From NCBI RefSeq assembly GCF_030013205.1, contig NZ_CP122648.1: DNA of 64,000 nucleotides. One strand, written 5' to 3'. This stretch comes from Escherichia coli. Lineage in GTDB: Bacteria; Pseudomonadota; Gammaproteobacteria; Enterobacterales; Enterobacteriaceae. Shown piece after piece: positions 30,369 to 64,000 of the stretch. The notes beneath the pieces were generated by a model. That model did no database searches. It saw only the letters and a program-made list of their open reading frames with translations, and was not told the DNA's origin. Numbering within the stretch: the first letter of the stretch is position 1; each line of letters starts with the position of its first letter. Made by a program: the position numbers and the translations under genes.

Positions 30369-31018
30369 TGTTGGATCTGTTTGCCGATGCTGAACCGTGG
30401 CAAGAGCCACTGGCGGCTGGTGCGGTAATTTTACGGCGTTTTGCTTTTAACGCTGCGGAGCAACTGATCCGCGATATTAATGACGTTGCCAGCCAGTCGC
30501 CGTTTCGCCAGATGGTCACTCCAGGCGGATATACCATGTCGGTGGCGATGACCAACTGTGGGCATCTGGGCTGGACGACCCATCGGCAAGGTTATCTCTA
30601 TTCGCCCATTGATCCGCAAACAAATAAACCGTGGCCCGCCATGCCGCAGAGTTTTCATAATTTATGTCAACGTGCGGCTACGGCGGCGGGCTATCCAGAT
30701 TTCCAGCCAGATGCTTGTCTTATCAACCGCTACGCTCCTGGCGCGAAACTGTCGCTGCATCAGGATAAAGACGAACCGGATCTGCGCGCGCCGATTGTTT
30801 CTGTTTCTCTGGGCTTACCCGCGATTTTTCAATTTGGCGGCCTGAAACGAAATGATCCGCTAAAACGTTTGTTGTTGGAACATGGCGATGTGGTGGTATG
30901 GGGCGGTGAATCGCGGCTGTTTTATCATGGCATTCAACCGTTGAAAGCGGGGTTTCATCCACTCACCACCGACTGCCGCTACAACCTGACATTCCGTCAG
31001 GCAGGTAAAAAAGAATAA
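30368..31018 (+). CDS. alkB: alpha-ketoglutarate-dependent dioxygenase AlkB
   Basis: 216-aa ORF MLDLFADAEPWQEPLAAGAVILRRFA; start overlaps the ada stop (ada-alkB operon). Confidence 0.95.
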   Translation: MLDLFADAEPWQEPLAAGAVILRRFAFNAAEQLIRDINDVASQSPFRQMVTPGGYTMSVAMTNCGHLGWTTHRQGYLYSPIDPQTNKPWPAMPQSFHNLCQRAATAAGYPDFQPDACLINRYAPGAKLSLHQDKDEPDLRAPIVSVSLGLPAIFQFGGLKRNDPLKRLLLEHGDVVVWGGESRLFYHGIQPLKAGFHPLTTDCRYNLTFRQAGKKE

Positions 31019-31093
31019 AAATAAGAATTATTATTGCTGTGCGCACGAAGATGTTTAAACTGCGGGCTGTAATTCATTGTCCGGGTTTTCTGC

Positions 31094-32737
31094 ATGGAAC
31101 TTCTTGTACTTGTCTGGCGGCAGTATCGCTGGCCATTTATCAGTGTGATGGCGCTAAGCCTCGCCAGTGCGGCATTAGGCATTGGCTTAATTGCTTTTAT
31201 CAATCAGCGCCTTATCGAAACGGCGGATACCAGTCTGCTGGTATTGCCGGAGTTTCTGGGGTTATTGCTGCTGTTGATGGCCGTCACTCTCGGATCGCAA
31301 CTGGCGCTCACCACTTTGGGGCATCACTTCGTTTACCGACTGCGTAGTGAATTTATCAAGCGGATTCTCGATACTCACGTCGAGCGCATTGAACAACTCG
31401 GTAGCGCCTCGTTGCTGGCGGGATTAACCAGCGATGTGCGCAATATCACCATTGCTTTTGTGCGTCTGCCGGAACTGGTGCAGGGGATCATTCTCACTAT
31501 CGGTTCAGCGGCGTATTTGTGGATGCTGTCGGGCAAAATGTTGCTGGTAACGGCTATCTGGATGGCAGTCACCATCTGGGGTGGTTTTATACTGGTGGCG
31601 CGGGTGTACAAACATATGGCGACCCTGCGTGAAACCGAAGATAAGCTGTACACGGATTTTCAAACCGTACTCGAAGGGCGCAAAGAGCTGACTCTGAACC
31701 GTGAACGCGCCGAGTATGTGTTTAACAACCTCTACATTCCTGATGCGCAAGAGTATCGCCATCATATTATCCGCGCAGACACCTTCCATCTTAGTGCCGT
31801 GAACTGGTCAAACATCATGATGCTGGGCGCTATCGGCCTGGTGTTCTGGATGGCGAACAGTCTCGGTTGGGCTGATACCAACGTTGCTGCGACCTATTCG
31901 TTGACGCTGTTATTCCTGCGTACGCCGCTGCTTTCGGCGGTTGGCGCATTGCCGACGCTGCTGACGGCGCACGTGGCGTTTAACAAGCTGAAAAAATTCG
32001 CGCTCGCGCCTTTCAAAGCAGAGTTTCCGCGCCCGCAGGCGTTTCCCAACTGGCAAACGCTGGAGCTGCGTAACGTGACGTTTGCTTATCAGGATAACGC
32101 GTTTTCCGTTGGGCCGATTAACCTCACCATCAAACGTGGTGAACTGCTGTTTCTGATTGGTGGCAACGGTAGTGGAAAATCGACGCTGGCGATGTTGCTG
32201 ACGGGCTTGTATCAGCCACAAAGCGGCGAAATCTTGCTGGATGGCAACCCTGTCAGCGGCGAACAACCGGAAGATTATCGCAAACTGTTTTCGGCAGTGT
32301 TTACCGATGTCTGGCTGTTCGATCAACTGCTGGGGCCGGAGGGTCAACCCGCTAACCCGCAACTGATTGAGAAGTGGCTGGCGCAACTGAAAATGGCTCA
32401 TAAGCTTGAGTTAAGCAACGGGCGTATTGTTAACCTGAAGTTATCGAAAGGGCAGAAAAAACGCGTCGCGCTGTTGCTGGCGCTGGCAGAAGAACGCGAT
32501 ATTATCCTGCTGGATGAATGGGCGGCGGATCAGGACCCACACTTCCGTCGTGAGTTTTATCAGGTGTTGCTGCCGCTGATGCAGGAGATGGGTAAAACTA
32601 TTTTCGCCATCAGTCATGATGATCATTACTTTATCCACGCCGACCGCCTGCTGGAAATGCGCAACGGGCAACTTAGCGAGCTGACGGGCGAAGAGCGCGA
32701 TGCCGCTTCGCGTGATGCCGTTGCCCGGACGGCATAA
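31094..32737 (+). CDS. yojI: ABC transporter permease/ATP-binding protein YojI
   Basis: 547-aa ORF with N-terminal TM domain, Walker [10 protein letters not shown] and Walker [13 protein letters not shown]. Confidence 0.9.
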
Positions 32738-32942
32738 TATTACGACGCTGACCTGGCGGACTGCTGCCGCCAGGTCAATATGCTAAAAATCCCTTCATTT
32801 CTAATAACCCTATAATTAATCAATGAAATTATAATGTTTCTAAAATTAGAATATAATTTATAAACATCATTTAAATGTTGTTACTTAAGTGTTACCGTTG
32901 ATGCCGCGCAAATCTCACCTGCAATAAAGCGACTAAAAGTAA

Positions 32943-53361: not shown

Positions 53362-55401
53362 TCATCCCAGGAACCGTTGAGCACCAATTAGTTGCGCGAA
53401 GTAATCGGCACCAGCGTTCCGAACAATTTCCAACTTAACGTTCTGATCATTGTTTCCTGCTGCAGGGACAATCCCACGATTCATAGCCAGCGCCCGGATC
53501 ACATCTTCAACACTTACAGCTTTAGCGGCAGCACCATTTTCATGGTTAATAATGCCCTGAATTAGCTTTTTCATGACCTCAAAATTAGAACCATCGATTT
53601 TCTCCTTAACACCTAATCCGGTGTACTGAGAGAGATAGCTTTTATAGGACGATGTGTTATTTCCATCAGATGAAGGGGCATAAATATCAATAATCTGATC
53701 AATCGTATTTTTGCCGCGTTTCAGGTATAGCATTACCTGCCGATCTAAGGCGGCAATGCCTTCCAGCATCGTCGGGAAGCTGGCAAAACGGGCATTTGGC
53801 CCCGATTCCAGGGTAGCCCCTTTTTGTCCTGCGAAATTAAGATTTCCGGGATTGTTATTCCTGATCCCTCTGGATAAATATGCAGATCTGTTTACTTGAT
53901 TTGAAAATCCCTGCAATCCTCCAGGCCAGACCTTACCCGGATTGTTTTTTTGCCACTCCTGCACTTCGTTAAAATAATCAAAGTTGAAACGCCCCTCCAG
54001 CCCTTTCATTTCCTCACTGGTGGTAGGTGTGTCATTTGTAGGAATAGCCAATCCAGCTACTGTTCCGGCTGTAGCCCCAAGAAGACTTCCACCAACAACA
54101 CGGGCGGCAACTCCGGTCGTTGTGGCTGCCACAGCACCAACTCTCGATGGTCCAGCAAGTACTGCGGCCCCAAAAAGCCAGGGATGTTCAACCGCAAAAC
54201 CAACAAACCCGCTAAGTGCCTTAACAACCTTTGCAACGTTTTCGGCAAAATTGTTCAGGTCGTTATTAAAATCCGGGCCATTTACGTACTTACCAAGTTT
54301 ATCCAGCCCCGTTTCTACATCCGTCAGAATCCTTTTAAAGTTCTCACCATTCATGAAATTCAGGGCAGCATTCGTGGCACCATCAGACATTCTGATTAAA
54401 GCGTCTTCATTCCCCGCCATTGCTCCCTGAAATCCGCTGGTAAGCCGATCCCAGTTTTTTTCCAGGTTACTGGTAATATTCTGATATTTACTTGTATGTG
54501 CAGAGGTCAGTAACGAATCATTCTGCGCTGCACGTAACGAAAACTCTTTGTTGAGTTCAGGTATTTTGTCCTGATATTTGACTAACTGGTTAGTAAGACC
54601 AAAATTTACCCATCCAAGCCCCATTCCTCTGAAATTGCTCTGGGTAAGACCAGTTCCCTGATATTCCTTTGCCAGCGCTGCAACCTTTTTCAGGAATACA
54701 GGCAGGTTTTCAGTCGCGTTTTTATCAGGATTTAGCCCCAGATTAAGCAGGCCGACGCGGGCAGGATGCGATATATCATTTTGTGCTGCTGCCAGTGTAT
54801 TGAGCACATTGCCAACACCGGAAAAATAAGGCGAATAAGTGCTTTCTGCCGCCTTTAACTCTCCTGGCGTTGCCACCAGCTCATCTGCATTTTTCTGTTT
54901 CTCTACAACACTACGGGACATCATGCCAAAGCCAAACGGTCCGGCAACGCCCATAACCGAGAGTTTTGTTCCCCACGATACGGTTGTTTTAAACAGGTTG
55001 TTTAATCTTGAAGTGGTCGTCTGTAGTGTAGAATTGATCTGCTTGTAAGTTTTCAGCGTCTGTTGGGCATTTTTCCCCAGCCCGCTGAGATACTTATCAA
55101 ACATCGTTTCGCCGCGACCTTTATAGTTGCTTACGAACGAATCTGCTGTTTTTCCGCTGCCGACAAAGCGCCCTTTTTCGTCCCTCACTCTCCCGGATAC
55201 ATCCGGTCCTGTCCGACCAGATTTTGCCGCCACGGGTAAGCCTGCCCCCACGCTGCGCCCACTTTGCCCCGGTATTTTCATCGGCGTTCCGGCAGGGCCG
55301 ATCATCAGCCCGTTGCGATACTTTTCAAAAATTGCCTCAAGCCGTTTGAGGTGTTCTTCATTAACGTCCAGCGTCAGAACTGGCATCTGATTACCTGACA
55401 T
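53362..55401 (-). CDS. large Gly/Ala-rich protein, tape-measure-like (function uncertain)
   Basis: 679-aa ORF; hydrophobic Gly/Ala-rich segment (GFVGFAVEHPWLFGAAVLAGPSRVGAVAATTTGVAARVVGGSLLGATAGTVAGLAIP), helical N-terminal half, C-terminal NNNPGNLNF region; start codon overlaps the stop of the upstream frameshifted pair (TAATG). No NTPase motif found. Confidence 0.45.
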   Translation of the reverse strand: MSGNQMPVLTLDVNEEHLKRLEAIFEKYRNGLMIGPAGTPMKIPGQSGRSVGAGLPVAAKSGRTGPDVSGRVRDEKGRFVGSGKTADSFVSNYKGRGETMFDKYLSGLGKNAQQTLKTYKQINSTLQTTTSRLNNLFKTTVSWGTKLSVMGVAGPFGFGMMSRSVVEKQKNADELVATPGELKAAESTYSPYFSGVGNVLNTLAAAQNDISHPARVGLLNLGLNPDKNATENLPVFLKKVAALAKEYQGTGLTQSNFRGMGLGWVNFGLTNQLVKYQDKIPELNKEFSLRAAQNDSLLTSAHTSKYQNITSNLEKNWDRLTSGFQGAMAGNEDALIRMSDGATNAALNFMNGENFKRILTDVETGLDKLGKYVNGPDFNNDLNNFAENVAKVVKALSGFVGFAVEHPWLFGAAVLAGPSRVGAVAATTTGVAARVVGGSLLGATAGTVAGLAIPTNDTPTTSEEMKGLEGRFNFDYFNEVQEWQKNNPGKVWPGGLQGFSNQVNRSAYLSRGIRNNNPGNLNFAGQKGATLESGPNARFASFPTMLEGIAALDRQVMLYLKRGKNTIDQIIDIYAPSSDGNNTSSYKSYLSQYTGLGVKEKIDGSNFEVMKKLIQGIINHENGAAAKAVSVEDVIRALAMNRGIVPAAGNNDQNVKLEIVRNAGADYFAQLIGAQRFLG

Positions 55402-56083
55402 TACAATACTCCTGCGGGATTTTTGAATTTGAGCAGCTCACGAAACTGAGCTGCTGTTTTTACATTCAGACCGGAATCTGCACAGATGTCTCTGAATCCG
55501 GCTCCGGCTGAGTAGTCGAGGATGTCGCTGATGACGTGTTCGCCGTCGCGCCAGAACTGACGGCAGGCTTCAATGTCGGCAATGAATCGATCCATTCCGT
55601 AAGACTCAAGGACGAGCATTGAGTGCTCCATATTCCATTCACCGCATCCATAGTCCCCTTCGTCTGCTCCGGGGAATTTATCGACGAGACGCATGTAAAA
55701 AAAACAAGTTCACCCGCCACTTCGTCCAAATCAACGATTTCACGCTCCAGCGCCATATCGAGAGGGATTGTGTCGTAGCCTTTGCCCTCCACTGGATAAA
55801 CAAGGTTTGCCAGGCGAATAATTTCGTTTATGAGCGTATTACGTATGCCTTTCTCCCCATCCCATAAACCGGAGTCACGGGAGATTTTCTCCAGCATAAG
55901 GCAGGCAACGCGCGGACCCGCAACAACACCAAGACCTTCAGAAAAAATGGCAGAAAAGGTTTTACTCAGGATGAAGAAATGCTCTTTAAACACCTCTTTG
56001 CTGATCGGCGTGGCATGGAGCCAGCCATTACCCTTTTCAGTGCGCACAGGGATAATCAGATTTAAGTTTTTAGCAATTTTCAT
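55401..56083 (-). CDS. two overlapping same-strand ORFs joined by a probable programmed -1 frameshift (tail assembly chaperone G/GT-like)
   Basis: ORF A (56083 down to about 55466) reads ...DLDEVAGELVFF through a run of 8 T on the minus strand (8 A on plus at about 55696-55703); ORF B (about 55694..55401) is in the -1 frame and continues ...YMRLVDKFPGADEG. Upstream segment about 129 aa, downstream about 98 aa, directly 5' of the 679-aa gene. Confidence 0.4.
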
Positions 56084-56763
56084 GATTCACTCACTCTGTT
56101 TTTTTCCAGTTGATCCAGCCGCCCGGATATTTCTTCCAGTTTTTCCAGAGCTGGCTTGCAGGCCGCATCAATAACTTCACGGACCATTCCGGCGAGCTGT
56201 TCTTCTTCTGTCGGCGTTGTTACTTCCACACCTGATGGTTTCCCGCCCTTATCCCATACGCCCAACGGTACGAGCGCAACGTGATCGATAAGAAATGGCG
56301 TACCCTCAATGAAAAAATTGTCCTCGCCCATTACATCAGGAACTTCTGCCCCACCGGACGCACCACAAAACACAACCGACGGGCTGGTGGATACCTCCCC
56401 CCGTGCTTTCTGGATGTAATCGATGATTTCCTGCCCGTAAATCCGGCATACACCCCACACCTCGTCACCGCGAATATACGGCAACATGACGGTGCCAATA
56501 ATGCGCGACCGTTCGCCAACGTCTTCAATGGTTTTGCCTTCGGGATGGTCGATAATGACGGGTACTCCGGCGCAACGTTCCAGGAACTGCGGATTGAGAT
56601 AAGTTTGCGGTGAACGCCAGACAAATTCTTTTTCTTCGGCGCGGTAGGCCATGCCAGTCCCTGTAATACGCAGGTTAACCAGCCACATGTTGGAGAACTG
56701 ATAAGGCGACGGTAGCTGACCGTCCCGAATCTGCTTTGCCGCCTCAATTTCTGTTAAAAGCAT
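56080..56763 (-). CDS. phage-like hypothetical protein (227 aa)
   Basis: ORF MLLTEIEAAKQIRDGQLPSPYQFSNMWLVNLRITGTGMAYRAEEKEF; overlaps the start of the downstream gene by 4 nt (coupled operon). No family recognised with confidence; could be a tail-tube-type or protease-type protein. Confidence 0.5.
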   Translation of the reverse strand: MLLTEIEAAKQIRDGQLPSPYQFSNMWLVNLRITGTGMAYRAEEKEFVWRSPQTYLNPQFLERCAGVPVIIDHPEGKTIEDVGERSRIIGTVMLPYIRGDEVWGVCRIYGQEIIDYIQKARGEVSTSPSVVFCGASGGAEVPDVMGEDNFFIEGTPFLIDHVALVPLGVWDKGGKPSGVEVTTPTEEEQLAGMVREVIDAACKPALEKLEEISGRLDQLEKNRVSES

Positions 56764-56827
56764 AATGTCACCCGGTTATAATCAATAAGCCCCGCCAAAT
56801 CCGGCAGGGCTGAAATCAGCACGTTTT

Positions 56828-57415
56828 TCATGCCCCCGCGAGGCTTGCAACGTTAATTTTGACCAGGCGACGGGGAGGGATTTTGAAAGCACTAAGCCAG
56901 TTATTCGGATCCCCCTGATATTCAGTAATCCGGCGCCCGGCTTCATCCATCCTGACTTTTTTAGTCAAATAACCCGGCGTGTTTTCCACGGCCCACTGAG
57001 CACTTTCCTGAGCAGCCTTGTAAATCTGATCTTCCAGCACCGCCAGCGTTGCAGAATCTGAAACGGAACGAATATCCACATCACTGAATTTTTTAGCCAG
57101 CTTCTGTGCGCCAATTAATGCACGCTTGCGGTAATCCATCGACTTTTCACCAGCAAACGGGGCCGGAGCTCGACGGCCCATATTGCTGTATGCGGAATCC
57201 GCTTTGGCCTGGGCTTCTGCCAGTGAGGATTCATCTTCGACTGACGCGACGATGTTTTGATTAGCGTTATCCTCTTTTATGAAATCCTGTGCGGGGATCG
57301 CATTCAGAATTTCGATAATCTCCTGCGGAGTGCTGCCCTGCGACTCTGACAGAGCGTTAACCACCTCCATCAGTTTTAATCGCAAATCTTCTTTGCTTGC
57401 TGGCATTTTTACCAC
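56828..57415 (-). CDS. phage-like hypothetical protein (195 aa)
   Basis: ORF MVKMPASKEDLRLKLMEVVNALSESQGSTPQEIIEILNAIPAQDF; acidic/helical; first gene of the leftward operon after a promoter-like gap. Confidence 0.5.
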   Translation of the reverse strand: MVKMPASKEDLRLKLMEVVNALSESQGSTPQEIIEILNAIPAQDFIKEDNANQNIVASVEDESSLAEAQAKADSAYSNMGRRAPAPFAGEKSMDYRKRALIGAQKLAKKFSDVDIRSVSDSATLAVLEDQIYKAAQESAQWAVENTPGYLTKKVRMDEAGRRITEYQGDPNNWLSAFKIPPRRLVKINVASLAGA

Positions 57416-57445
57416 CTCTCTTTTTTCACCAAAAAATCACGACCA

Positions 57446-57643
57446 TCAGGCCGGACGTTCTACGGGATAAAGCGCCCGCTGCATTAAACGCCGGGCGACC
57501 TCATGAATGCTCGGAGCAATCCCCAGCGGAGAATTGCGGCGTTCCTCGTCCTGGATGCGCTGTAATGCTTCAATCTGATCACGAGCGAGTAAAACAGGTT
57601 TCACGCTGGCTTTTCTCATAGTCATATCTCCTGAACAAAACAA
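57446..57643 (-). CDS. small hypothetical protein (65 aa or shorter from an internal Met)
   Basis: ORF MFCSGDMTMRKASVKPVLLARDQIEALQRIQDEERRNSPLGIAPSIHEVARRLMQRALYPVERPA; possibly a small DNA-binding/antitoxin-like protein; no family recognised. Confidence 0.35.
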   Translation of the reverse strand: MFCSGDMTMRKASVKPVLLARDQIEALQRIQDEERRNSPLGIAPSIHEVARRLMQRALYPVERPA

Positions 57644-57749
57644 CGATTATGATTGCACAAACTGAAATGACGATCTACATCATTGCAATTTATGAAACAA
57701 TAACGCATGATGATCGCGTTCTTCCCATTGACTTCAATCACCTGAAAAA

Positions 57750-57785
57750 CAAAGCCCGCAACACTTCTGGCTGCGGGCTTTTTAC
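57750..57785 (-). terminator. intrinsic terminator downstream of the PerC-like gene
   Basis: Minus strand GCCCGCAGCCAGAAGTGTTGCGGGC hairpin followed by TTTGTTTTT. Confidence 0.5.
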
Positions 57786-57820
57786 TGGCACAAAAAAGCC
57801 GGGAAAAATCCCGGCCTCCG

Positions 57821-58108
57821 TCACTGACTGCAATTTTTCGATCCAGGGTATTTCCTGAATGCCTTACCATTGGGCTGATGTAATCCCATCCCGGCATGTG
57901 CCCGGCTGATGGTTTCGCGCATCTCCCCGAAATTATCCTGCCGTGCTGGTGGGCGTGCTGCCTTGCGGATACATTCCGCGCGACGTTTTGCCGCCTGTTC
58001 CCGTGCCTTGTCATCATTCGCCAGCATGATGACCTCAGCCCACCGCGCCGCCGCTCTCCGGTACAGACCACGCGCTTCCAGTGCTTCCGCTTTGCTGTCG
58101 TGAATCAT
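57821..58108 (-). CDS. PerC-family transcriptional activator-like protein
   Basis: 95-aa ORF MIHDSKAEALEARGLYRRAAARWAEVIMLANDDKAREQAAKRRAECIRKA; the KAExLExRGxYRRAAxRW pattern matches recalled PerC/Pch-type activators. Confidence 0.55.
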   Translation of the reverse strand: MIHDSKAEALEARGLYRRAAARWAEVIMLANDDKAREQAAKRRAECIRKAARPPARQDNFGEMRETISRAHAGMGLHQPNGKAFRKYPGSKNCSQ

Positions 58109-58647
58109 GCGCCTGTTTTCTCCTTTGCTACCCGGCGCTGACGTTTGCGCTTCTCATTCAGCGCCACCAGCCGCGTTTCTGCGTCCTGTTGTTCCTGTGG
58201 TGTCACCTCGCCGCACGGCTGGCCTTTCAGGTCGTAGCGTACCCCACCAGCCATTAAGGCGCGGTAATAGCGCGGACACTGTGCATAAGATGCCAGCGTC
58301 GCACGCAATGCCCCTGGACCGAATGCCAGCCCCCTGACGGCGAGATCCTGCATCAGGTCGTCGAATATCCCCACCTTAAGCGGCTTCGGTGCTTCCCGGC
58401 TGAATAATTCAGGCCACAACTCAGTGAGGCGGTTAATGCGCCTGCGGTTTTTGCGCTGGCGCTTGGTCATATGCCGCCACAGTGTCGCCCCTGTGGGCTT
58501 CTGCTGCGCTTTCTGGTTACCGGGCATCACTTTATGCGCCGATGTGGTTTTATCCTGCTCCTGCGCCGCCTGCGTCGTTTTCTGCGGCGTGCCGTAAATG
58601 CCTTTAGGTTTTCTGTTAATGGTCAGCTTAGTCATGCTTTGCCCCAT
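58105..58647 (-). CDS. ProQ/FinO-domain RNA-binding protein
   Basis: 180-aa ORF; basic N-terminus then LTELWPELFSREAPKPLKVGIFDDLMQDLA...GALRATLASYAQCPRYYRALMAGGVRYDLKGQPCGEVTPQEQQDAETRL, closely resembling the recalled ProQ N-terminal FinO domain. Confidence 0.7.
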   Translation of the reverse strand: MGQSMTKLTINRKPKGIYGTPQKTTQAAQEQDKTTSAHKVMPGNQKAQQKPTGATLWRHMTKRQRKNRRRINRLTELWPELFSREAPKPLKVGIFDDLMQDLAVRGLAFGPGALRATLASYAQCPRYYRALMAGGVRYDLKGQPCGEVTPQEQQDAETRLVALNEKRKRQRRVAKEKTGA

Positions 58648-58719
58648 CGTTTTTACTGATTGCTACGTTGCCCAACGGCACTGACACAACATTCTGTTTT
58701 CATTTTTAACATTCCTAAT

Positions 58720-59115
58720 TTTTTAATTCCTCACCTGCTGCACAGTGAAAATTTATGAAGTTAATAACAATATGATTTTAAATGTATTTTTAAGTACTCA
58801 CTTTTTAATCCTTATATATACGCAAAAGTGAGGTAAATAGTTAAGTTTTAGTTAATATCTTGCATGGTGTGTTTTTTAACCTACCTGTTATTTTTATTAC
58901 CTCATTTCTATTAACTCACCATTCCTCACTTTTGTTCCTCACTTTTTGTTATTCCCGTCCTGCTCCTCACCTGTTTTTCTTGTTGTTGTAATGTCTTGTT
59001 TTACAATATGTTTTTCATTCCTCACTTTTTGACCTATATACAGGTGAGAAAGTGAGGAGTGGCGTTGATTTTTTGTTAAATTACCCGCCATCCTCACTTT
59101 TGCTCCTCACTTTTT
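58720..59115. repeat. iteron array (TCCTCACTTTT and variants, direct and inverted), candidate replication origin
   Basis: At least 10 copies of CCTCAC(T/C)TTT: e.g. 58728, 58924, 58937, 58964, 59020, 59091, 59105 direct and 58826, 59044 inverted, within AT-rich DNA directly 3' of the helicase gene; the last copies overlap the helicase stop codon. Confidence 0.6.
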
Positions 59116-60529
59116 ACAGTGGGCGCACATAATCACCGTCAATAGCGATTACGCCGTCGCTTTCCAGCTTGTACAGCCAGCGCCGGAAGTTTTTCATTTC
59201 ATACCCCAGCTTTTTCATATCATCGCGGAGAAGGGCGATAGTGCACGCCTCCCCGTGTGCTGTTCGCGTTCTGATGCACTGCCATAGCGCAGCGTGATTT
59301 TCCGTCTTGTTCCCGGCCTCCTCGATGCGTTCCAGTTCAACAGGTGGGCGCGGCTTATCCACAACCACCAGCGACGTGATTAACTCCCCGTCAGTGTCGG
59401 TAAAAAGCTCCACCACGCGTAAATCATATGCAGCCTCTTTCAGTTCCTCCGCGTCCTTCATTTTGGTGCAGGAGATAACCAGGGCTTCACTGTCCGCACC
59501 TTCACGGCGAATACGGTATTCAGCGTCCAGAGATGCACGAAATGCACTGGAACCACGCGCCCCTTTTGTTTCATCCTTGCCGGAATGGTGAACCACCAGT
59601 ACCGTGGCCCCCGTGCGTCGTTTCAGTTCGTCACATCCACGGATAAACGCCCCCATATCCCGCGCGTCATTTTCATCATTACCGCCAAAGCAACGCGCCA
59701 GCGTATCCAGAATAATCATGCGTACCGGTTTACCCGTTTCCCGTTCAACCTGACGGGAAGCGATGACCATTTCATCAACATCAAGCGGGACCGCCGGAAA
59801 AATCGGGCGGTTTACCAGGTACAGATTTTTCACCCGTTCATCATTAACGATTTCCCATGCTTTGATACGACGAGGGACACCAATGCCACCTTCACCGACG
59901 ACATACATCACCGAACCATGCGCCACCCTGCGGCCTCCCCAGTGGCGACCCGTGGCAACATGACACGCCCAGGAACACGCGAGGAACGATTTATAGGAAC
60001 CGCTCGCGCCGTATGTGCTGCACAATGAATTAGCCGGAATCACGCCCTTAACGACATAATCAAGCTGTGTGTCGTACCCTGCAGATCCAATACTCATTGG
60101 TAGTGTGGTTTTTCGCTGGTCGTTTTTTTCTTCCTCTGGTATCTCTCCGGACAGTCTTTTCTGGCGCTCTCGTTCCAGATATTCGCGCCACTCCTCGCGT
60201 TTCTGGCTGTGCATTCCCTCGGGGTAATAATTCGCATCCCGTACACCTGCCGCCGCCAGCTTTTGCCCGATGGCGTTAATATTTGACGGCTTGATGTGGC
60301 CTGCCTTGTACAGCCGGACACAATAGCGACCATCGTCGATAATTTTCAGGTCTGCCAGTTCGTCAAGCTGGCTGTCTCCCAGCCATACAGGCGGCACGTT
60401 GTCGCCAGCAAGTCGCCCGTCCTGCTCCTGCCACTGTTTCGCGTGCGCCCAGGCATCACTACCCGCAAAAATAATGACTTCGGTCATTTTGTCGTGTGGC
60501 TGTTTTTTTAAGTTCGGTGCCAGTTTCAT
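59114..60529 (-). CDS. RepA/DnaB-like replicative helicase (RecA-fold ATPase)
   Basis: 471-aa ORF with P-loop GASGSYKS, Walker-B-like ILDTLARCFGG and LVVHHSGKDETKGARGSSAF, typical of phage/satellite helicase-type initiators; start overlaps the upstream gene stop. Confidence 0.75.
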   Translation of the reverse strand: MKLAPNLKKQPHDKMTEVIIFAGSDAWAHAKQWQEQDGRLAGDNVPPVWLGDSQLDELADLKIIDDGRYCVRLYKAGHIKPSNINAIGQKLAAAGVRDANYYPEGMHSQKREEWREYLERERQKRLSGEIPEEEKNDQRKTTLPMSIGSAGYDTQLDYVVKGVIPANSLCSTYGASGSYKSFLACSWACHVATGRHWGGRRVAHGSVMYVVGEGGIGVPRRIKAWEIVNDERVKNLYLVNRPIFPAVPLDVDEMVIASRQVERETGKPVRMIILDTLARCFGGNDENDARDMGAFIRGCDELKRRTGATVLVVHHSGKDETKGARGSSAFRASLDAEYRIRREGADSEALVISCTKMKDAEELKEAAYDLRVVELFTDTDGELITSLVVVDKPRPPVELERIEEAGNKTENHAALWQCIRTRTAHGEACTIALLRDDMKKLGYEMKNFRRWLYKLESDGVIAIDGDYVRPL

Positions 60530-60825
60530 TTTGTGCCCCTGAATGCGTTAATCATGTTTTTCATTTTCTGAATATTTGCCCGTGCCTTTGCGTTGCTGGT
60601 GGGCTGTTTGCATGGCGTGGCCTGTATCAGTGAAAAATCACGCCGGAACTGATAAACAGGCATCACGCAGTCATATTCGTACCCATCACGGCGGTAAGTA
60701 ACGCACCGTCCCGCCACGCTTTTAATCGTTACAGTGCCGCCGTATTTATCTTTGAAAATATCGCCGGGGCGGATTTCAGGCCGAGAGAGACCGCTGGCAG
60801 TAAAGCCAGAATTTTTCTTTTTCAT
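60526..60825 (-). CDS. hypothetical protein (99 aa)
   Basis: ORF MKKKNSGFTASGLSRPEIRPGDIFKDKYGGTVTIKSVAGRCVTYRRDGYEYDC; coupled (ATGA overlap) to the helicase gene. Confidence 0.5.
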   Translation of the reverse strand: MKKKNSGFTASGLSRPEIRPGDIFKDKYGGTVTIKSVAGRCVTYRRDGYEYDCVMPVYQFRRDFSLIQATPCKQPTSNAKARANIQKMKNMINAFRGTK

Positions 60826-60831
60826 GGTTTT

Positions 60832-61197
60832 TTACTCCTGCGTCTTGCTCTGAATTACCTGATAACCGCAATCGGTCAGCAATTCGATAAATTCCGGCAA
60901 TGTGCCGAAACAGCAATTATCACGCATACGTTCGCGGGATACCTCAACGCCGTTTTCGTAGTGACTCACCATGCGTCCGGTAAAATGCAGATCATCATCG
61001 TGATGGCACGTTGACGGCTTAATCAGTCGCGCACGTTCTGCCAGCTCCAGCAATGCTTCAACACTTCCGGCAATTGCACCATCCGGCAGGCGATAATTAC
61101 TTACCACGCGTCCATTCTCCACATTGACCAGTAGCTGCCCGGTAAATTTCTCATCAAACTGAATGCTGTTAAGGTCAGAAATTGACAGGTTATGCAT
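60832..61197 (-). CDS. hypothetical protein (121 aa)
   Basis: ORF MHNLSISDLNSIQFDEKFTGQLLVNVENGRVVSNYRLPDGAIAGSVEALLELAERA; same operon, overlaps the upstream gene by 8 nt. Confidence 0.5.
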   Translation of the reverse strand: MHNLSISDLNSIQFDEKFTGQLLVNVENGRVVSNYRLPDGAIAGSVEALLELAERARLIKPSTCHHDDDLHFTGRMVSHYENGVEVSRERMRDNCCFGTLPEFIELLTDCGYQVIQSKTQE

Positions 61198-61552
61198 GGT
61201 GCACCTCCTGGCGAATACGGGCGGCGAATACCATCACGCAGCCATCAGGAGATTGCTGGCGTGCTTCCTGTTCGCTGGTGGCCTCGATGTGAATCACGCG
61301 CGGTTGTGCCGTACTCAGGGCGATAAAACGCCAGATAAAATTGTTTTCGCATTTCTGAATAAACAGCGTGTTTTCTTCGCGCCCTTTCCATGTTGCCGAG
61401 ATATAGCCCATGCCATTGAGCATCTCGCAGGCATCAACCAGCGTATCAGCGGCTACGTGTACAGTGTTTTTACCGTCAGCTATGCAATCACGGTGCACCG
61501 CCAGGAAGGTGTATATAAATTTAGGGTGAGTTTGGGTATGCTGTGTTCCAGC
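61190..61552 (-). CDS. hypothetical protein (about 120 aa)
   Basis: Internal start of the long minus ORF: MAGTQHTQTHPKFIYTFLAVHRDCIADGKNTVHVAADTLVDACEMLNGMGY, preceded by GAGGT RBS; everything upstream in that frame looks like antisense junk. Confidence 0.45.
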   Translation of the reverse strand, partial: AGTQHTQTHPKFIYTFLAVHRDCIADGKNTVHVAADTLVDACEMLNGMGYISATWKGREENTLFIQKCENNFIWRFIALSTAQPRVIHIEATSEQEARQQSPDGCVMVFAARIRQEVHHA

Positions 61553-61754
61553 CATAATCGTTACCTCATTTAACGGTTTGGTTAGAAGCCCCGTTACTGC
61601 TCCAACAGTGCGGGGCTTCGTCGTTTCAATTGCTGAATTGCATGTATCAGCCCTTGTGGTATTCAGATTACATTTTGGTGAATACCATTTCAAGTCTTTT
61701 TTGGTATTCACTTTTGTATTACACTGCATCCCGTTATTAATCGGAGGTGCAAAC

Positions 61755-62060
61755 ATGTCCACGAGTTCTGTTAACAATAAGTCACAGCAACTGAATGCCA
61801 GATTTCCACATGAAGTAGTGAGTGGCATTGAGGCATCCCTACAGCCAGGGGAAACTAAAGCGAATTTTATAGTTACGGCTGTACGCGGTGAGATCGCCCG
61901 CCGCCAGGCAGAAGGAAGCGGAGAAAACCCCCTGGTTTCTTCGCTCGATGCGCTGGCGCAGGTGGAAAAAATCGGAGTCAAAGCTGCCGAGGAGATCGGG
62001 CAGCTCGTCACCGTCGCACGTGAAGAACTCCAGCGCCGCAAGGCCAAAGAATCAGAATAA
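61755..62060 (+). CDS. small DNA-binding-like protein (possible ribbon-helix-helix / YlcI-YnfO-like), the only convincing plus-strand gene in the element
   Basis: ATG 61755 preceded by GGAGG RBS; MSTSSVNNKSQQLNARFPHEVVSGIEASLQPGETKANFIVTAVRGEIARRQAEGSGENPL (101 aa); divergent from the flanking minus-strand genes. Confidence 0.5.
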   Translation: MSTSSVNNKSQQLNARFPHEVVSGIEASLQPGETKANFIVTAVRGEIARRQAEGSGENPLVSSLDALAQVEKIGVKAAEEIGQLVTVAREELQRRKAKESE

Positions 62061-62283
62061 TAACTATCATCGCCGTGGTGTGAGGAACTCCGGCGCATTG
62101 CTTTACAGGTACACAGAATGACCAACAAAGAATCAACCAAAACACCATCACCAACTCGTAAGAGACGACGCAAAAATATAGCGCATGAACATGAATCAGA
62201 AAGATTCGCACCTTGTTCGTTTGCTCTTGAGAAATTCCTTAAAGAGCACAGGAAAAAGCTCTCGTTGCAAACCTTGGAACGAA

Positions 62284-62692
62284 CCAAATCTGACTGATCA
62301 CATTGCCCACCAGCCGCAAATGTGGCATTGTTGGTGATGCGTTCAAGTATGTAGCTTTTCCACTGGCGGCTCTCTACGGTCGCCTTTGTTTTATCCAGAA
62401 CGAAATCAGACATCAGATTGATCAGCACCTGGCGACCTGACAAAATCGCATCAGTCGCGCCACCAGCAAAATTTTTTGCTTTCCGGACGGCGTGACCAAC
62501 GGCATTTTGCAGCAAAATATTCTGCATTTCTGGCGTGCTGTAGTAACGGTGATCAGCGCCTTCACTCTGTGCGACCACAACGCTATAATCTGCCTCGTAG
62601 ACAGTAAGCAATATGGCGCAGTAGGCTATTCGTTCACAAAGGCGCTCCGGCAACGGGGCGCTTTTTGTTATGTTCATCGCGTTACGCCTCAC
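62284..62692 (-). CDS. hypothetical protein; protein-like N-terminal about 135 codons of a 500-codon open frame (true 3' end unclear)
   Basis: MRRNAMNITKSAPLPERLCERIAYCAILLTVYEADYSVVVAQSEGADHRYYSTPEMQNILLQNAVGHAVRK is protein-like, but the frame has no stop until 61190 and runs antisense through the plus-strand gene with Ser/Cys-rich junk; possible lost stop, frameshift or sequencing error. Confidence 0.35.
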
Positions 62693-62696
62693 ACCA

Positions 62697-62903
62697 TTAC
62701 GCAGCCGTTCCGCGCGCTTCTTCCTCGCGTTCTTTCAGCCAGGCCAGCACCTCATCTTCATACCAGCCAACACGACGCAGACCGATTTTGAAGCCTTTCG
62801 GGAATTTTCCGGCGTTGATCATGTCCTGTAGCGAACTGTCTGCCTTGATGCGCAGAATATTTTTTACTTCCTGACGGGTAAGGATTTTTCTGATTGTTTC
62901 CAC
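62697..62903 (-). CDS. alpA: AlpA-family phage regulatory protein (excisionase-like HTH)
   Basis: 68-aa ORF METIRKILTRQEVKNILRIKADSSLQDMINAGKFPKGFKIGLRRVGWYEDEVLAWLKERE, the AlpA/Vis pattern. Confidence 0.8.
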   Translation of the reverse strand: METIRKILTRQEVKNILRIKADSSLQDMINAGKFPKGFKIGLRRVGWYEDEVLAWLKEREEEARGTAA

Positions 62904-62971
62904 TATGTTTTACCTCGTTAATCCGGCGTATTCCGGTGATAAATACGGTAAAACAGGGCAGGGCGGGAAAA

Positions 62972-63008
62972 ACAGTACCCACCGTTTTAAAACGGTACCC
63001 ACTGTTTT
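62972..63008. promoter_or_regulatory. candidate operator in the alpA upstream region
   Basis: ACAGTACCCACCGTTTTAAAACGGTACCCACTGTTTTTT: two direct GTACCCAC copies flanking the perfect palindrome CCGTTTTAAAACGG, about 70-100 bp upstream of the alpA start. Confidence 0.4.
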
Positions 63009-63039
63009 TTATCTCATTGATTACGCTTTTCTTTTTGCA

Positions 63040-63066
63040 AAAAAATAGCGACCGCAAAGGGCCGCT
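63040..63066 (-). terminator. intrinsic terminator after the 76-aa ORF
   Basis: Minus strand ATAGCGGCCCTTTGCGGTCGCTAT hairpin followed by TTTTTTT. Confidence 0.45.
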
Positions 63067-63073
63067 ATTGTGA

Positions 63074-63304
63074 TTACCGCTTCCACTTCTTAGGTCGTCC
63101 ACCGCATTTAAGGCTGGTGGGTCTCAGCACCTTGTCGATGCTTTCAGCCAGATTTTTCGATGCGCCACGCGAGCGCAAAAAACTGACTACCTCGTGTTTT
63201 GTGGGGGCTGTTGATTTGTCTTCCGGATCGTACGTTGACCAGAATTCACGATTTGCCATTAAGGCCAGTTGCAGGCCTTCGCCGTAGGCGGTGGTATTTT
63301 GCAT
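63074..63304 (-). CDS. hypothetical small protein (76 aa)
   Basis: ORF MQNTTAYGEGLQLALMANREFWSTYDPEDKSTAPTKHEVVSFLRSRGASKNL between int and alpA; no family recognised. Confidence 0.45.
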   Translation of the reverse strand: MQNTTAYGEGLQLALMANREFWSTYDPEDKSTAPTKHEVVSFLRSRGASKNLAESIDKVLRPTSLKCGGRPKKWKR

Positions 63305-63402
63305 AATAGAATTTTCATATACTCCGGCCTTGTCGTTAAATTTGTGGCAATTATACGATGGTTTGGCATGGTTTTCACTGGTTGCACTGGCTTTTTGTAC
63401 AG

Positions 63403-64000
63403 TTACACGGCACGGATACCCCTTTTACCACTGGCTATGGTCACTCCGGTAGCTGCGGCCTCTACAAATTCCCCCCACCAGCGCATAAGCACCACGCGCT
63501 TTTCCAGGTAGTTACTTCGGTTATATGCTCGCCTTACCTCGTTCGTGTCCACGTGTGCGAGTGCGGCCTCGATTACGTCCGGCTCGAATCCTTCCTCGTT
63601 CGCTGCTGTACTGAATATGGCGCGTAATCCGTGAGACACCAGCACACCAGCGTATCCCATCCGGCGCAATGCAGCGTTAGCGGTCTGGCTGCTCATTGGC
63701 AGCATTGGATTTTTAAGGCTGGGAAAAACATGTTCCCTGTGTGCGCTGATTGGCTTCATTGTTTCCAGTACAGCCATCGCCTGACCGCAAAGAGGGATCA
63801 CATGGTCACGGCGCATCTTCATGCGTCCGGCTGGAATCGTCCAGGTTTCGGCATCGAGATCTATTTCTTCCCAGCGTGCGGCGGCTGCTTCGGCTGGGCG
63901 TGCTACGGTCAGCAGTTGCCACTCAATCAGCAATCTGGTTTGCCGTTCTATGCTGGCGACCGATAAATCGTGCATTAGCTGCGGTAGCTGTTCCGGTCGG
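63403..64000 (-). CDS. int: tyrosine recombinase / P4-type integrase, C-terminal catalytic part (gene starts beyond right edge)
   Basis: Frame is open to the window edge; C-terminal sequence ...HDLSVASIERQTRLLIEWQLLTVARPAEAAAARWEEIDL...HVIPL...LVSHGLRAIFSTAANEEGF...RRAYNRSNYLEKR shows the R...HxxR...Y catalytic residues of tyrosine integrases. Confidence 0.85.
   Translation of the reverse strand, partial: RPEQLPQLMHDLSVASIERQTRLLIEWQLLTVARPAEAAAARWEEIDLDAETWTIPAGRMKMRRDHVIPLCGQAMAVLETMKPISAHREHVFPSLKNPMLPMSSQTANAALRRMGYAGVLVSHGLRAIFSTAANEEGFEPDVIEAALAHVDTNEVRRAYNRSNYLEKRVVLMRWWGEFVEAAATGVTIASGKRGIRAV

Follow-up and report, generated by a model that had tools for sequence, protein, structure and literature searches.

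This work concerns a 64,000-nt window of an Escherichia coli contig (NZ_CP122648.1, assembly GCF_030013205.1) and in it a 679-codon minus-strand gene which an earlier reading of the sequence (the original prediction) had described as tape-measure-like. The window is 100% identical to a record of E. coli ETEC4079 (pig, Belgium). The gene encodes a protein with the homologues and gene order of a tail tape-measure protein (TMP), a tail assembly chaperone gene with a frameshift site lies directly upstream, and both belong to an island bounded by direct repeats (Table 1). All in all, a functional contractile-tail TMP and its -1 frameshifting chaperone are probably encoded within the late operon of a phage-inducible chromosomal island (PICI) that is ~13.2 kb long and of the EcCICFT073 kind, a reading that we prefer with some reservation.

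Identity of the 679-aa protein

RefSeq annotates the same coding sequence in ETEC4079, where its product is named "lytic transglycosylase domain-containing protein". The gene is part of a tight co-oriented operon, and an AGGAG Shine-Dalgarno sequence is found 7 nt 5' of its ATG. Family searches were conducted with PHROGs, Pfam-A, NCBIfam and PADLOC, and structural relatives were sought with phmmer against PDB sequences and with Foldseek against the PDB. In PHROGs the protein is covered end to end by phrog_7694, a family without annotated function (E 1.9e-290); further hits, to families labelled tape measure, endolysin and tail injection transglycosylase, cover its last ~140 residues. Pfam-A gave no match for it at E <= 0.001, NCBIfam gave none for the TMP, the chaperone or the scaffold-like genes of the island, and nothing meaningful was returned by PADLOC.

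The only close relative among deposited phages is gp56 of PP818812, which is 89% identical to aa 1-508 of the island protein; the TMPs of many E. coli prophages are 82-88% identical overall. In PP818812 a sheath-size gene (445 aa), a tube-size gene (147 aa) and a 205-aa gene are followed by gp56 and then by baseplate genes, and gp56 therefore occupies the TMP slot of a Mu-like contractile tail. The same order is found in the prophage of E. coli 214-4, in which the TMP homologue has 691 aa. A scan of IMG/VR for TMP homologues uncovered 56 loci: 52 prophage fragments (20-50 kb) and 4 island-type contigs (10-16 kb). The prophage loci carry portal, capsid, sheath, tube, chaperone, TMP, hub and baseplate J genes. 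In these loci and in PP818812 the homologue lies between the chaperone pair and the hub or baseplate genes. In the window copy the chaperone is the only tail-related neighbour, and the 3' neighbour is a gene resembling a terminase small subunit (TerS) or Rpp.

On homology and gene order, the 679-aa protein is the tail TMP of a contractile, Mu-like tail type. The tape-measure identity proposed in the original prediction therefore stands, with tail-type neighbours present in the 52 prophage loci and in PP818812; in the window itself the gene lies outside any tail module, the C-terminal domain can be assigned, and the effector option finds no support. The concern that 679 aa is short for a siphovirus tape measure is moot, as its relatives belong to tail modules of the contractile, Mu-like kind, in which TMPs measure 652-704 aa.

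Architecture and segment variation

Glycine makes up 11.3% of the TMP and alanine 9.6% (together 21%). Variation is distributed unevenly along the protein. The N-terminal 40 residues contain many invariant alignment columns and, in the four strains that hold both an island and a helper prophage, are 92-100% identical between the island TMP and the co-resident helper TMP, even where the remainder is only 44% identical. They are followed by a low-complexity linker with a dN (non-synonymous divergence) of ~0.55 against two helper TMPs. The short form of this linker was considered as a satellite-specific feature and rejected, as it is also present in three helper prophages (L015, L016 and L035).

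The "long hydrophobic Gly/Ala-rich core" described earlier is reduced to a single 60-residue segment, aa 396-455, with 40% G+A and 5% charged residues. It is a candidate membrane-inserting hairpin. A full-length AlphaFold model is almost wholly helical over aa 100-507, but with a mean pLDDT (predicted local distance difference test) of 43 it was too poor to be used for a fold search.

The C-terminal tail, ending ...KLEIVRNAGADYFAQLIGAQRFLG, is the island's own allele of a motif present at the end of all TMPs of the group. It is conserved among islands and found in 0 of the 52 helper TMPs, the nearest being that of L040. In all four strains the tail is only 32-38% identical to that of the co-resident helper.

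The Enc34-type C-terminal domain

The original prediction could match the C-terminal 150 aa to no domain, yet they can be assigned as Enc34-type through PDB sequences and the predicted fold, with PHROGs also giving named matches there. With phmmer, the region matched 9vvp_L (the N-terminal domain of Gp29, entry 9VVP; E 1.6e-12) and 7q47_A (the catalytic domain of the phage Enc34 endolysin; E 1.3e-10, aa 508-625). For residues 493-679, an AlphaFold2 (AF2) model computed from 18 homologues reaches a pLDDT >90 in its core. Foldseek, which had been proposed earlier as a check, returned 7Q47 as the top match for this part (E 2.7e-8, probability 1.00, TM 0.60-0.71), and no other PDB entry matched below E = 1. 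The motif RGIRNNNPGNL is found at aa 511-520, and the alignment of 18 sequences contains the family motifs RGIRNNNPGN, (W/Y)AP, NNTxxY and HENG.

The PHA02564 family is muralytic and has a diverged all-helical lysozyme-like fold; in Enc34 the key residues are Glu131 together with Tyr95 and Trp79 (PMC8943055). By alignment these correspond to E621 (INHENG), Y586 (NNTSSY) and Y574 (IYAP) of the island protein. From sequence and modelled fold, the C-terminal domain of the TMP is of the Enc34/PHA02564 type and predicted to hydrolyse peptidoglycan, with E621 as the predicted catalytic residue. A lytic transglycosylase of the SLT/GH23 type, as implied by the RefSeq name, was tried and rejected: there is no Pfam match and the E-S...GLMQ motifs are not in the island TMP. 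These classical SLT motifs sit instead in the alternative C-terminal domain of PP818812 gp56 and of many helper TMPs. Enc34-type enzymes have been inferred to be glucosaminidase-like (PMC8943055). The RefSeq product name is near in spirit but imprecise.

The domain type recurs in chi-like endolysins and in Pseudomonas Mu-like phage proteins, and gp16-type internal virion proteins have it at their N-terminus. The Enc34 endolysin (PDB 7Q47; Cernooka et al. 2022, PMC8943055) shares sequence, predicted fold, motifs and the catalytic Glu with the island domain, which differs in having Tyr in place of Trp79. Enc34 is also a free endolysin with a C-terminal membrane anchor, whereas the island domain is the C-terminal module of a 679-aa structural protein. 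In the gp16-type proteins of K1F-like podoviruses (PDB 9VVP, Gp29) the domain is likewise fused to a protein that is expelled through the envelope, but there it lies at the N-terminus, and the protein is a ~1300-aa component of the internal core of phages with short tails.

Muralytic domains at the ends of TMPs are an established feature of these proteins (T5 Pb2, mycobacteriophage TM4 Tmp). This bears on the earlier suggestion of an injected or effector-type protein, here taken as an effector or toxin with no part in setting tail length. The enzymatic domain at the C-terminus and the hydrophobic segment would fit such a protein, but the first of these is also an established TMP feature. The homology to TMP-slot proteins of complete tail modules extends over the full length, the gene has a dedicated frameshifting chaperone, and no defence or toxin family was matched in PADLOC, Pfam or NCBIfam. 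With its homologues in the TMP slot, the effector option is without support and extremely improbable.

The tail assembly chaperone

The 205-aa protein encoded upstream of the TMP is 85% identical to gp55 of PP818812, which is located between the tube gene and the TMP gene. Pfam-A gave no match for it. Its ORF (open reading frame) is overlapped by a 97-codon ORF in the -1 frame, which ends at a TAATG that overlaps the TMP start codon. The -1 frame is open for ~100 codons from the T8 run, and slippage there would yield a predicted G/GT-like fusion of ~228 aa. In a set of 67 homologous chaperone genes (76-100% aa identity), every copy has kept the 205-codon zero frame, a T8 run at the same position and a -1 ORF that stops at the start of the TMP gene. 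The T8 frameshift site is also present in PP818812. The "frameshifted chaperone-like pair" that had been noticed upstream of the TMP gene is thus borne out and, judged by this conservation, is a genuine tail assembly chaperone.

The island around the gene

The window holds no prophage tail module, and the setting of the gene had gone unnoticed in the original prediction: among the annotated and searched genes of the island there are no sheath, tube, baseplate, capsid, hub or lysis genes, and the surroundings are those of a PICI-type satellite. The boundary direct repeats match at 25 of 26 positions and lie 13,158 bp apart. The integrase is at one end, and the island also has an AlpA-like regulator and a pri-rep region with iterons. 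In addition, int, the helix-turn-helix (HTH) gene, YlcI, DUF4222, the N-domain of the primase, PerC and the terminal ORF are homologous to their counterparts in EcCICFT073 and stand in the same order. By gene content and layout the ~13.2-kb element is of the PICI type and of the EcCICFT073 kind. One rule in use would reject it. SatelliteFinder treats tail and lysis genes as a "forbidden component" (PMC10085698), and the island, while free of lysis genes, contains a TMP and a tail chaperone. This rule is an operational criterion and not a biological definition.

Table 1. Features of the island and of the TMP gene (window positions unless a locus is named)
Feature	Position	Strand	Basis or remark
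PICI-type island	51552..64000 (continues beyond window end)	.	boundary repeats, annotation
Boundary repeat, 26 nt	51552-51577		partner at L001 21011-21036, just past window end
59-aa ORF	52310-52489		
Three TTGACACTTTTT repeats	52576-52778	.	within longer imperfect repeats, directly 3' of 175-aa gene
175-aa HTH protein, TerS-like N-terminus	52783-53310	-	RppA position of EcCICFT073
TMP gene	53362..55401	-	ATG ORF, 679 aa; WP_236448941.1; phrog_7694; TMP slot in homologous loci
TMP C-terminal tail, aa 643-679, ending ...KLEIVRNAGADYFAQLIGAQRFLG	53365..53475	-	alignments
TMP Enc34-type (PHA02564) muralytic domain, aa ~508-642	53476..53880	-	phmmer, AF2/Foldseek
TMP hydrophobic Gly/Ala-rich segment, aa 396-455	54037..54216	-	Kyte-Doolittle windows >=1.2, composition
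TMP variable low-complexity linker, aa 41-86	55144..55281	-	explains 679 versus 691/693 aa
TMP conserved N-terminal 40 residues	55282..55401	-	island versus co-resident helper comparison, alignment
T8 slippery run (55697-55704) and -1 extension	55401..55704	-	X_XXY_YYZ register; phrog_14324 for -1 ORF
Tail assembly chaperone, 205 aa (zero-frame product)	55466..56083	-	phrog_11810; gp55 of PP818812
227-aa DUF2213 gene	56080-56763	-	homologue of N-terminal half of helper 440-aa DUF2213 head protein
195-aa gene	56828-57415	-	homologue of C-terminal part of helper 440-aa DUF2213 protein
Small ORF	57446-57643		
PerC-family regulator	57821-58108	-	53% identity to EcCICFT073 PerC
ProQ/FinO-family gene	58105-58647	-	head of late region
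Three TCCTCACTTTTT iterons	58922-59116		~84 bp spacing, directly 3' of helicase/primase gene
RepA-type helicase/primase	59114-60529	-	sequence search
DUF4222	60526-60825		
YlcI/YnfO gene and Icd-like remnant	~61400-62300		
AlpA-like HTH	62697-62903		
Integrase	past 64000 to 63403		runs off window end
tRNA-Pro	L001 21155-21231, just past window end		annotation

ARAGORN found no tRNA within the window, and no attachment core of >=10 nt duplicated from the tRNA 3' end was detected. This leaves the 26-nt repeat as the sole marker of the boundary; it may represent a site of the arm type and not the core. A 500-aa ORF at 61190-62692 (minus strand) is probably spurious, as RefSeq has an Icd-like pseudogene and a plus-strand YlcI/YnfO gene there. 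The TCCTCACTTTTT iterons are probably the replication origin of the island. Directly after the PerC gene there is a strong hairpin (57751-57781, minus strand; 12 pairs, 7 of them G-C, followed by a T-run), which may separate PerC from the morphogenesis operon. A scan for promoters and terminators gave nothing above chance.

Between the regulators and the chaperone, the 440-aa DUF2213 head protein of the putative helper (gp46) appears as two genes in permuted order, with the C-terminal part first. The 195-aa protein is 64% identical to residues 305-433 of gp46 and has no Pfam match. In several genomes RefSeq names it "NUDIX hydrolase", which looks wrong, as the only clear homology is to the C-terminal part of DUF2213. 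The 227-aa protein is 54% identical to gp46 residues 1-226 and weakly matches the head maturation protease family phrog_530; its gene is a core gene of this island type (33 genomes). The split and permuted genes look like scaffold mimicry for the redirection of capsid size, of a kind found in other satellites. The origin of the island by deletion between the helper 205-aa genes gp47 and gp55 was considered and rejected, as gp47 and gp55 are unrelated.

The 175-aa gene downstream of the TMP is present in 164 E. coli genomes. Its product matches phrog_57 (terminase small subunit) with E 5e-7, and over 25 aa its N-terminal HTH shares 40% identity with RppA; with the N-terminus of the helper TerS the HTH shares 32%. 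No significant relative was found among PDB sequences, and kinship with RppC is hence not shown in this way. The TTGACACTTTTT repeats that follow the gene are candidate packaging-site elements (cosB/pac-like). TTGACAC repeats are among the features that support the PICI context.

Distribution of the cassette and of helper prophages

Of 5426 complete E. coli genomes, 33 have split-DUF2213 islands, at 47 places in all, and the full TMP cassette is present in ~13 of these 33. ETEC4079 itself has a second island at tRNA-Gly (L004, record 949326-989864; 18900-32800) with another integrase and primase, in which the late cassette, TMP included, is 99-100% identical; match counts suggest a third island copy in this strain. 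The same late cassette is found near smrA in TUM1881 and STEC719 and at tRNA-Pro in ETEC4090 and UMNF18, which makes at least three integration sites with differing integrases and primases. Among the four island-type IMG/VR contigs, one (L039) is diverged (TMP 78%, PerC 73%) and has an SLT-type C-terminal domain.

Sister islands possess the same backbone and the 175-aa gene, with other modules between PerC and that gene and often with defence-like cargo at the end, a modular pattern that is typical of satellites. For example, the E. coli 55989 island (L007, at tRNA-Thr) and the islands L083-L110 have other modules such as a pair of 380-aa and 107-aa proteins; their end cargo includes an AAA ATPase with DUF4435, or Abi with SieB.

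Prophages of the helper type were counted in 81-92 of the complete genomes overall. They are present in at least 15 of the 33 island-bearing genomes against 0.49 expected (odds ratio 67, Fisher p 9e-20), in a test that ignores phylogeny and covers strains from varied sources. This overlap and the homology of four island genes to helper genes lend indirect support to a dependence of the island on such helpers. When the structural proteins of the 53 helper loci were compared with those of PP818812, median identities were 95-100%, except for the chaperone (86%) and the TMP (71%, down to 29%). The island carries exactly these two hypervariable genes. Helper TMPs have at least two alternative muralytic C-terminal domains (Enc34-type and SLT-type) and several types of C-terminal tail. 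In the four strains that hold both, the island TMP is 44, 63, 74 and 89% identical to the TMP of the co-resident helper, which has the SLT domain in three of them.

Two observations concern the helper records. PP818812 ("Actinobacillus phage vB_Apl-pPE4", L003) carries recE, recT, kil, dicA and ydaT of the E. coli Rac-like type, and its structural genes share 95-100% identity with E. coli prophage genes; the host given in the record, Actinobacillus, seems doubtful. In prophage L005, the gene in the helper portal position (24507-25943) is called "anti-CBASS protein Acb1 family protein" by RefSeq, probably a naming artefact to judge by its position and size.

Selection, recombination and loss

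Island copies of the TMP gene differ by 72 synonymous and 39 non-synonymous changes, which gives a ratio of non-synonymous to synonymous change (dN/dS) of 0.15; for the chaperone the ratio is 0.10. These low values are a sign of purifying selection. The TMP is intact in all 10 full-length island copies that were checked. Codons 401-500 are 100% identical in nucleotide sequence to prophage L005, while the flanks have a dS (synonymous divergence) of 0.4-0.57, a contrast which shows that island TMPs have recombined with helper TMPs.

Several results weigh against a functional cassette. It is dispensable for the persistence of the island, as it is kept in only about two fifths of the island-bearing genomes counted above and in 4 of 17 IMG/VR islands with a DUF2213 module. 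Its loss by deletion has taken three forms: 2,778 bp are cleanly absent from TUM9812, ETEC1738 has kept 138 nt from the 3' end of the TMP gene, and in ETEC4090 the two genes are fused in frame (DUF2213::TMP). Recombination may have imported part of the low dN/dS from helper TMPs, as the 300-nt prophage-identical stretch suggests. A helper-type prophage was not shown in ETEC4079, which is not among the 60 listed carriers and in which three matches resemble island copies. Finally, the island tail is unlike any co-resident helper tail examined, which would be a problem if the tail must fit the helper hub.

These losses could mean that the cassette is a passenger or relic, i.e. helper DNA that was captured or retained by recombination, is useless to the satellite and is being lost, with gene conversion refreshing its ORFs. 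The three independent deletion forms and the absence of the cassette from most islands of the type fit this explanation, and so does the mosaic identity with helper alleles. The TMP and chaperone are moreover 85-100% identical to helper genes versus 53-64% for the scaffold-like genes, which indicates different histories. However, intact copies are found at no fewer than three integration sites and also in the diverged island L039, and none of the 10 full-length copies showed a nonsense or frameshift allele, although dS reaches 0.17. The island tail, conserved among islands, has no donor among the 52 helper TMPs, and therefore at least the tail has been maintained in the island lineage. A TMP gene is also kept by an unrelated satellite family (see below). 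We consider a relic unlikely, although it is the strongest of the alternatives. As far as can be told from sequence, we take the cassette for an accessory and probably functional part of the island that does not belong to its core.

Proposed role

From the homology, architecture, context, conservation, recombination and co-occurrence described above, we infer the following course for a functional TMP-chaperone pair. When a lambdoid helper prophage whose head is of the DUF2213 type and whose tail is contractile turns lytic, the late operon of the island would be expressed. The chaperone and its frameshift product would coat the island TMP, which would nucleate on the helper baseplate hub through its C-terminal tail and set the length of the tube and sheath made by the helper. 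The island TMP would thus end up inside tails that carry satellite (and phage) capsids. Upon infection it would be expelled, the Enc34-type domain would cut peptidoglycan, and the Gly/Ala-rich hydrophobic hairpin may help to form a passage through the inner membrane.

In this scheme the island would supply its own allele of the two most variable helper tail genes, an allele whose muralytic domain usually departs from that of the co-resident helper and whose C-terminal tail always does. The probable gain would be independence from the helper TMP allele, for example by escape from TMP-directed blockers of tail assembly or from entry exclusion. Defence directed at TMPs has been described, in which specificity maps to the TMP C-terminal region and a TMP swap bypasses the defence (PMC10884400), and inhibitors of tail assembly are encoded by PICIs as well (PMC11364771). 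On the most economical reading, the island supplies an alternative TMP-chaperone pair that would allow tails to be built, or DNA to be injected, when the helper allele is compromised.

The divergent tail could also point in the opposite direction. As an interference factor, the island TMP would compete for chaperone, tube or hub and poison helper tail assembly, lowering helper yield either as satellite interference or as protection of the host. The dissimilarity of the island tail from that of the co-resident helper, seen in 4 of 4 strains, would suit such a role. Satellites commonly disturb helper morphogenesis, the neighbouring genes resemble split scaffold mimics and a TerS mimic, and interference with tail assembly is a known defence strategy of PICIs (PMC11364771). 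However, the transfer of PICIs needs helper tails, and a block of assembly would block the island too. All TMP features (the N-terminus, the frameshifting chaperone, the catalytic residues and the terminal motif) are kept, and TMP segments are interchangeable with those of helper TMPs. Interference is accordingly an improbable explanation, more so than a relic.

A wider proposal, which goes beyond a functional pair in this island and is offered tentatively as a possibility that we think doubtful, is that some PICIs pirate the tail too, re-equipping helper contractile tails with a different envelope-penetration module, in which both the muralytic domain and the hub-proximal tail are replaced, by means of their own TMP-chaperone pair. 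If this is true, satellite particles could assemble and inject where the helper TMP allele is blocked, whether by tail-assembly blockers or by entry exclusion in helper lysogens. Until now, the known targets of satellites have been the head and packaging specificity only. A satellite whose TMP is built into helper tails would alter the part of the virion that crosses the recipient envelope, and remodelling of the tail would be a third axis of satellite exploitation beside the redirection of capsid size and of packaging.

The hypervariability of the TMP and chaperone also points to a strong, unexplained diversifying pressure on the TMP in these E. coli prophages. Strains that hold both alleles, among them TUM1881 and STEC719 with an Enc34-type island TMP and an SLT-type helper TMP, provide a tractable natural system in which this pressure can be tested.

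Relation to known tails and satellites

The helper TMPs, such as gp56 of PP818812 and its counterpart in the E. coli 214-4 prophage, are collinear with the island TMP over the full length at 82-89% identity. They share the conserved N-terminus, the hydrophobic segment, the terminal motif and a chaperone with a T8 site, and some helper TMPs carry the Enc34-type domain as the island TMP does. PP818812 and many others have an SLT domain in its place, and the tail of the island TMP is its own. The helper genes are preceded by sheath and tube genes and followed by hub and baseplate genes, whereas the neighbours of the island copy are PICI genes.

EcCICFT073 and related E. coli PICIs (Fillol-Salom et al. 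2018/2019; PMC6739421) are the closest elements as a whole, with seven homologous genes, a similar size and integration beside a conserved locus. The common backbone consists of int, the AlpA-like HTH gene, YlcI/YnfO, the Icd-like sequence, DUF4222, primase and PerC, and is completed by morphogenesis genes of helper origin, by an HTH protein at the Rpp position and by a small ORF at the end. The morphogenesis genes themselves differ: EcCICFT073 has homologues of lambda-like capsid and decoration proteins and no tail genes, while the island has the split DUF2213 scaffold-like genes, the chaperone and the TMP. The 175-aa protein resembles RppA in the N-terminal HTH only. EcCICFT073 is an experimentally validated PICI and the function of RppA has been described (PMC6739421).

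Putative TMPs have been found in satellites before. Barth et al. (2023, PMC10055350) noted putative TMPs and a component of the baseplate hub in 224 putative E. coli satellites whose architecture is different. Like the island, these are small integrative E. coli elements with few tail genes that nevertheless have a putative TMP. They have a RepA_N initiator and no alpA or pri-rep, whereas the island has the AlpA-like HTH gene and the helicase/primase. Capsid, decoration and hub genes are part of their content and a chaperone pair is not reported for them; the island has no capsid or hub gene. In the literature no report was found of a TMP in an AlpA/pri-rep PICI. A TMP with a muralytic end, the Enc34-type domain and the PICI backbone are thus all known already, and what is unusual is the presence of a tail-assembly pair inside an AlpA/pri-rep PICI.

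Satellites are recognised partly by their missing tail genes, and the main detection tool rejects candidates that have such genes. Islands like this one are therefore probably undercounted. For annotation, a domain missed by Pfam and NCBIfam has been named and two RefSeq product names have been corrected.

An element similar to those of Barth et al. lies beside the tRNA-Gly island in ETEC4079 (L004 3825-16753). It contains an integrase, a baseplate-like protein, a 607-aa TMP-like protein (phrog_16051), a major capsid protein, a replication initiator and a serine recombinase. The 607-aa protein is unrelated in sequence to the island TMP.

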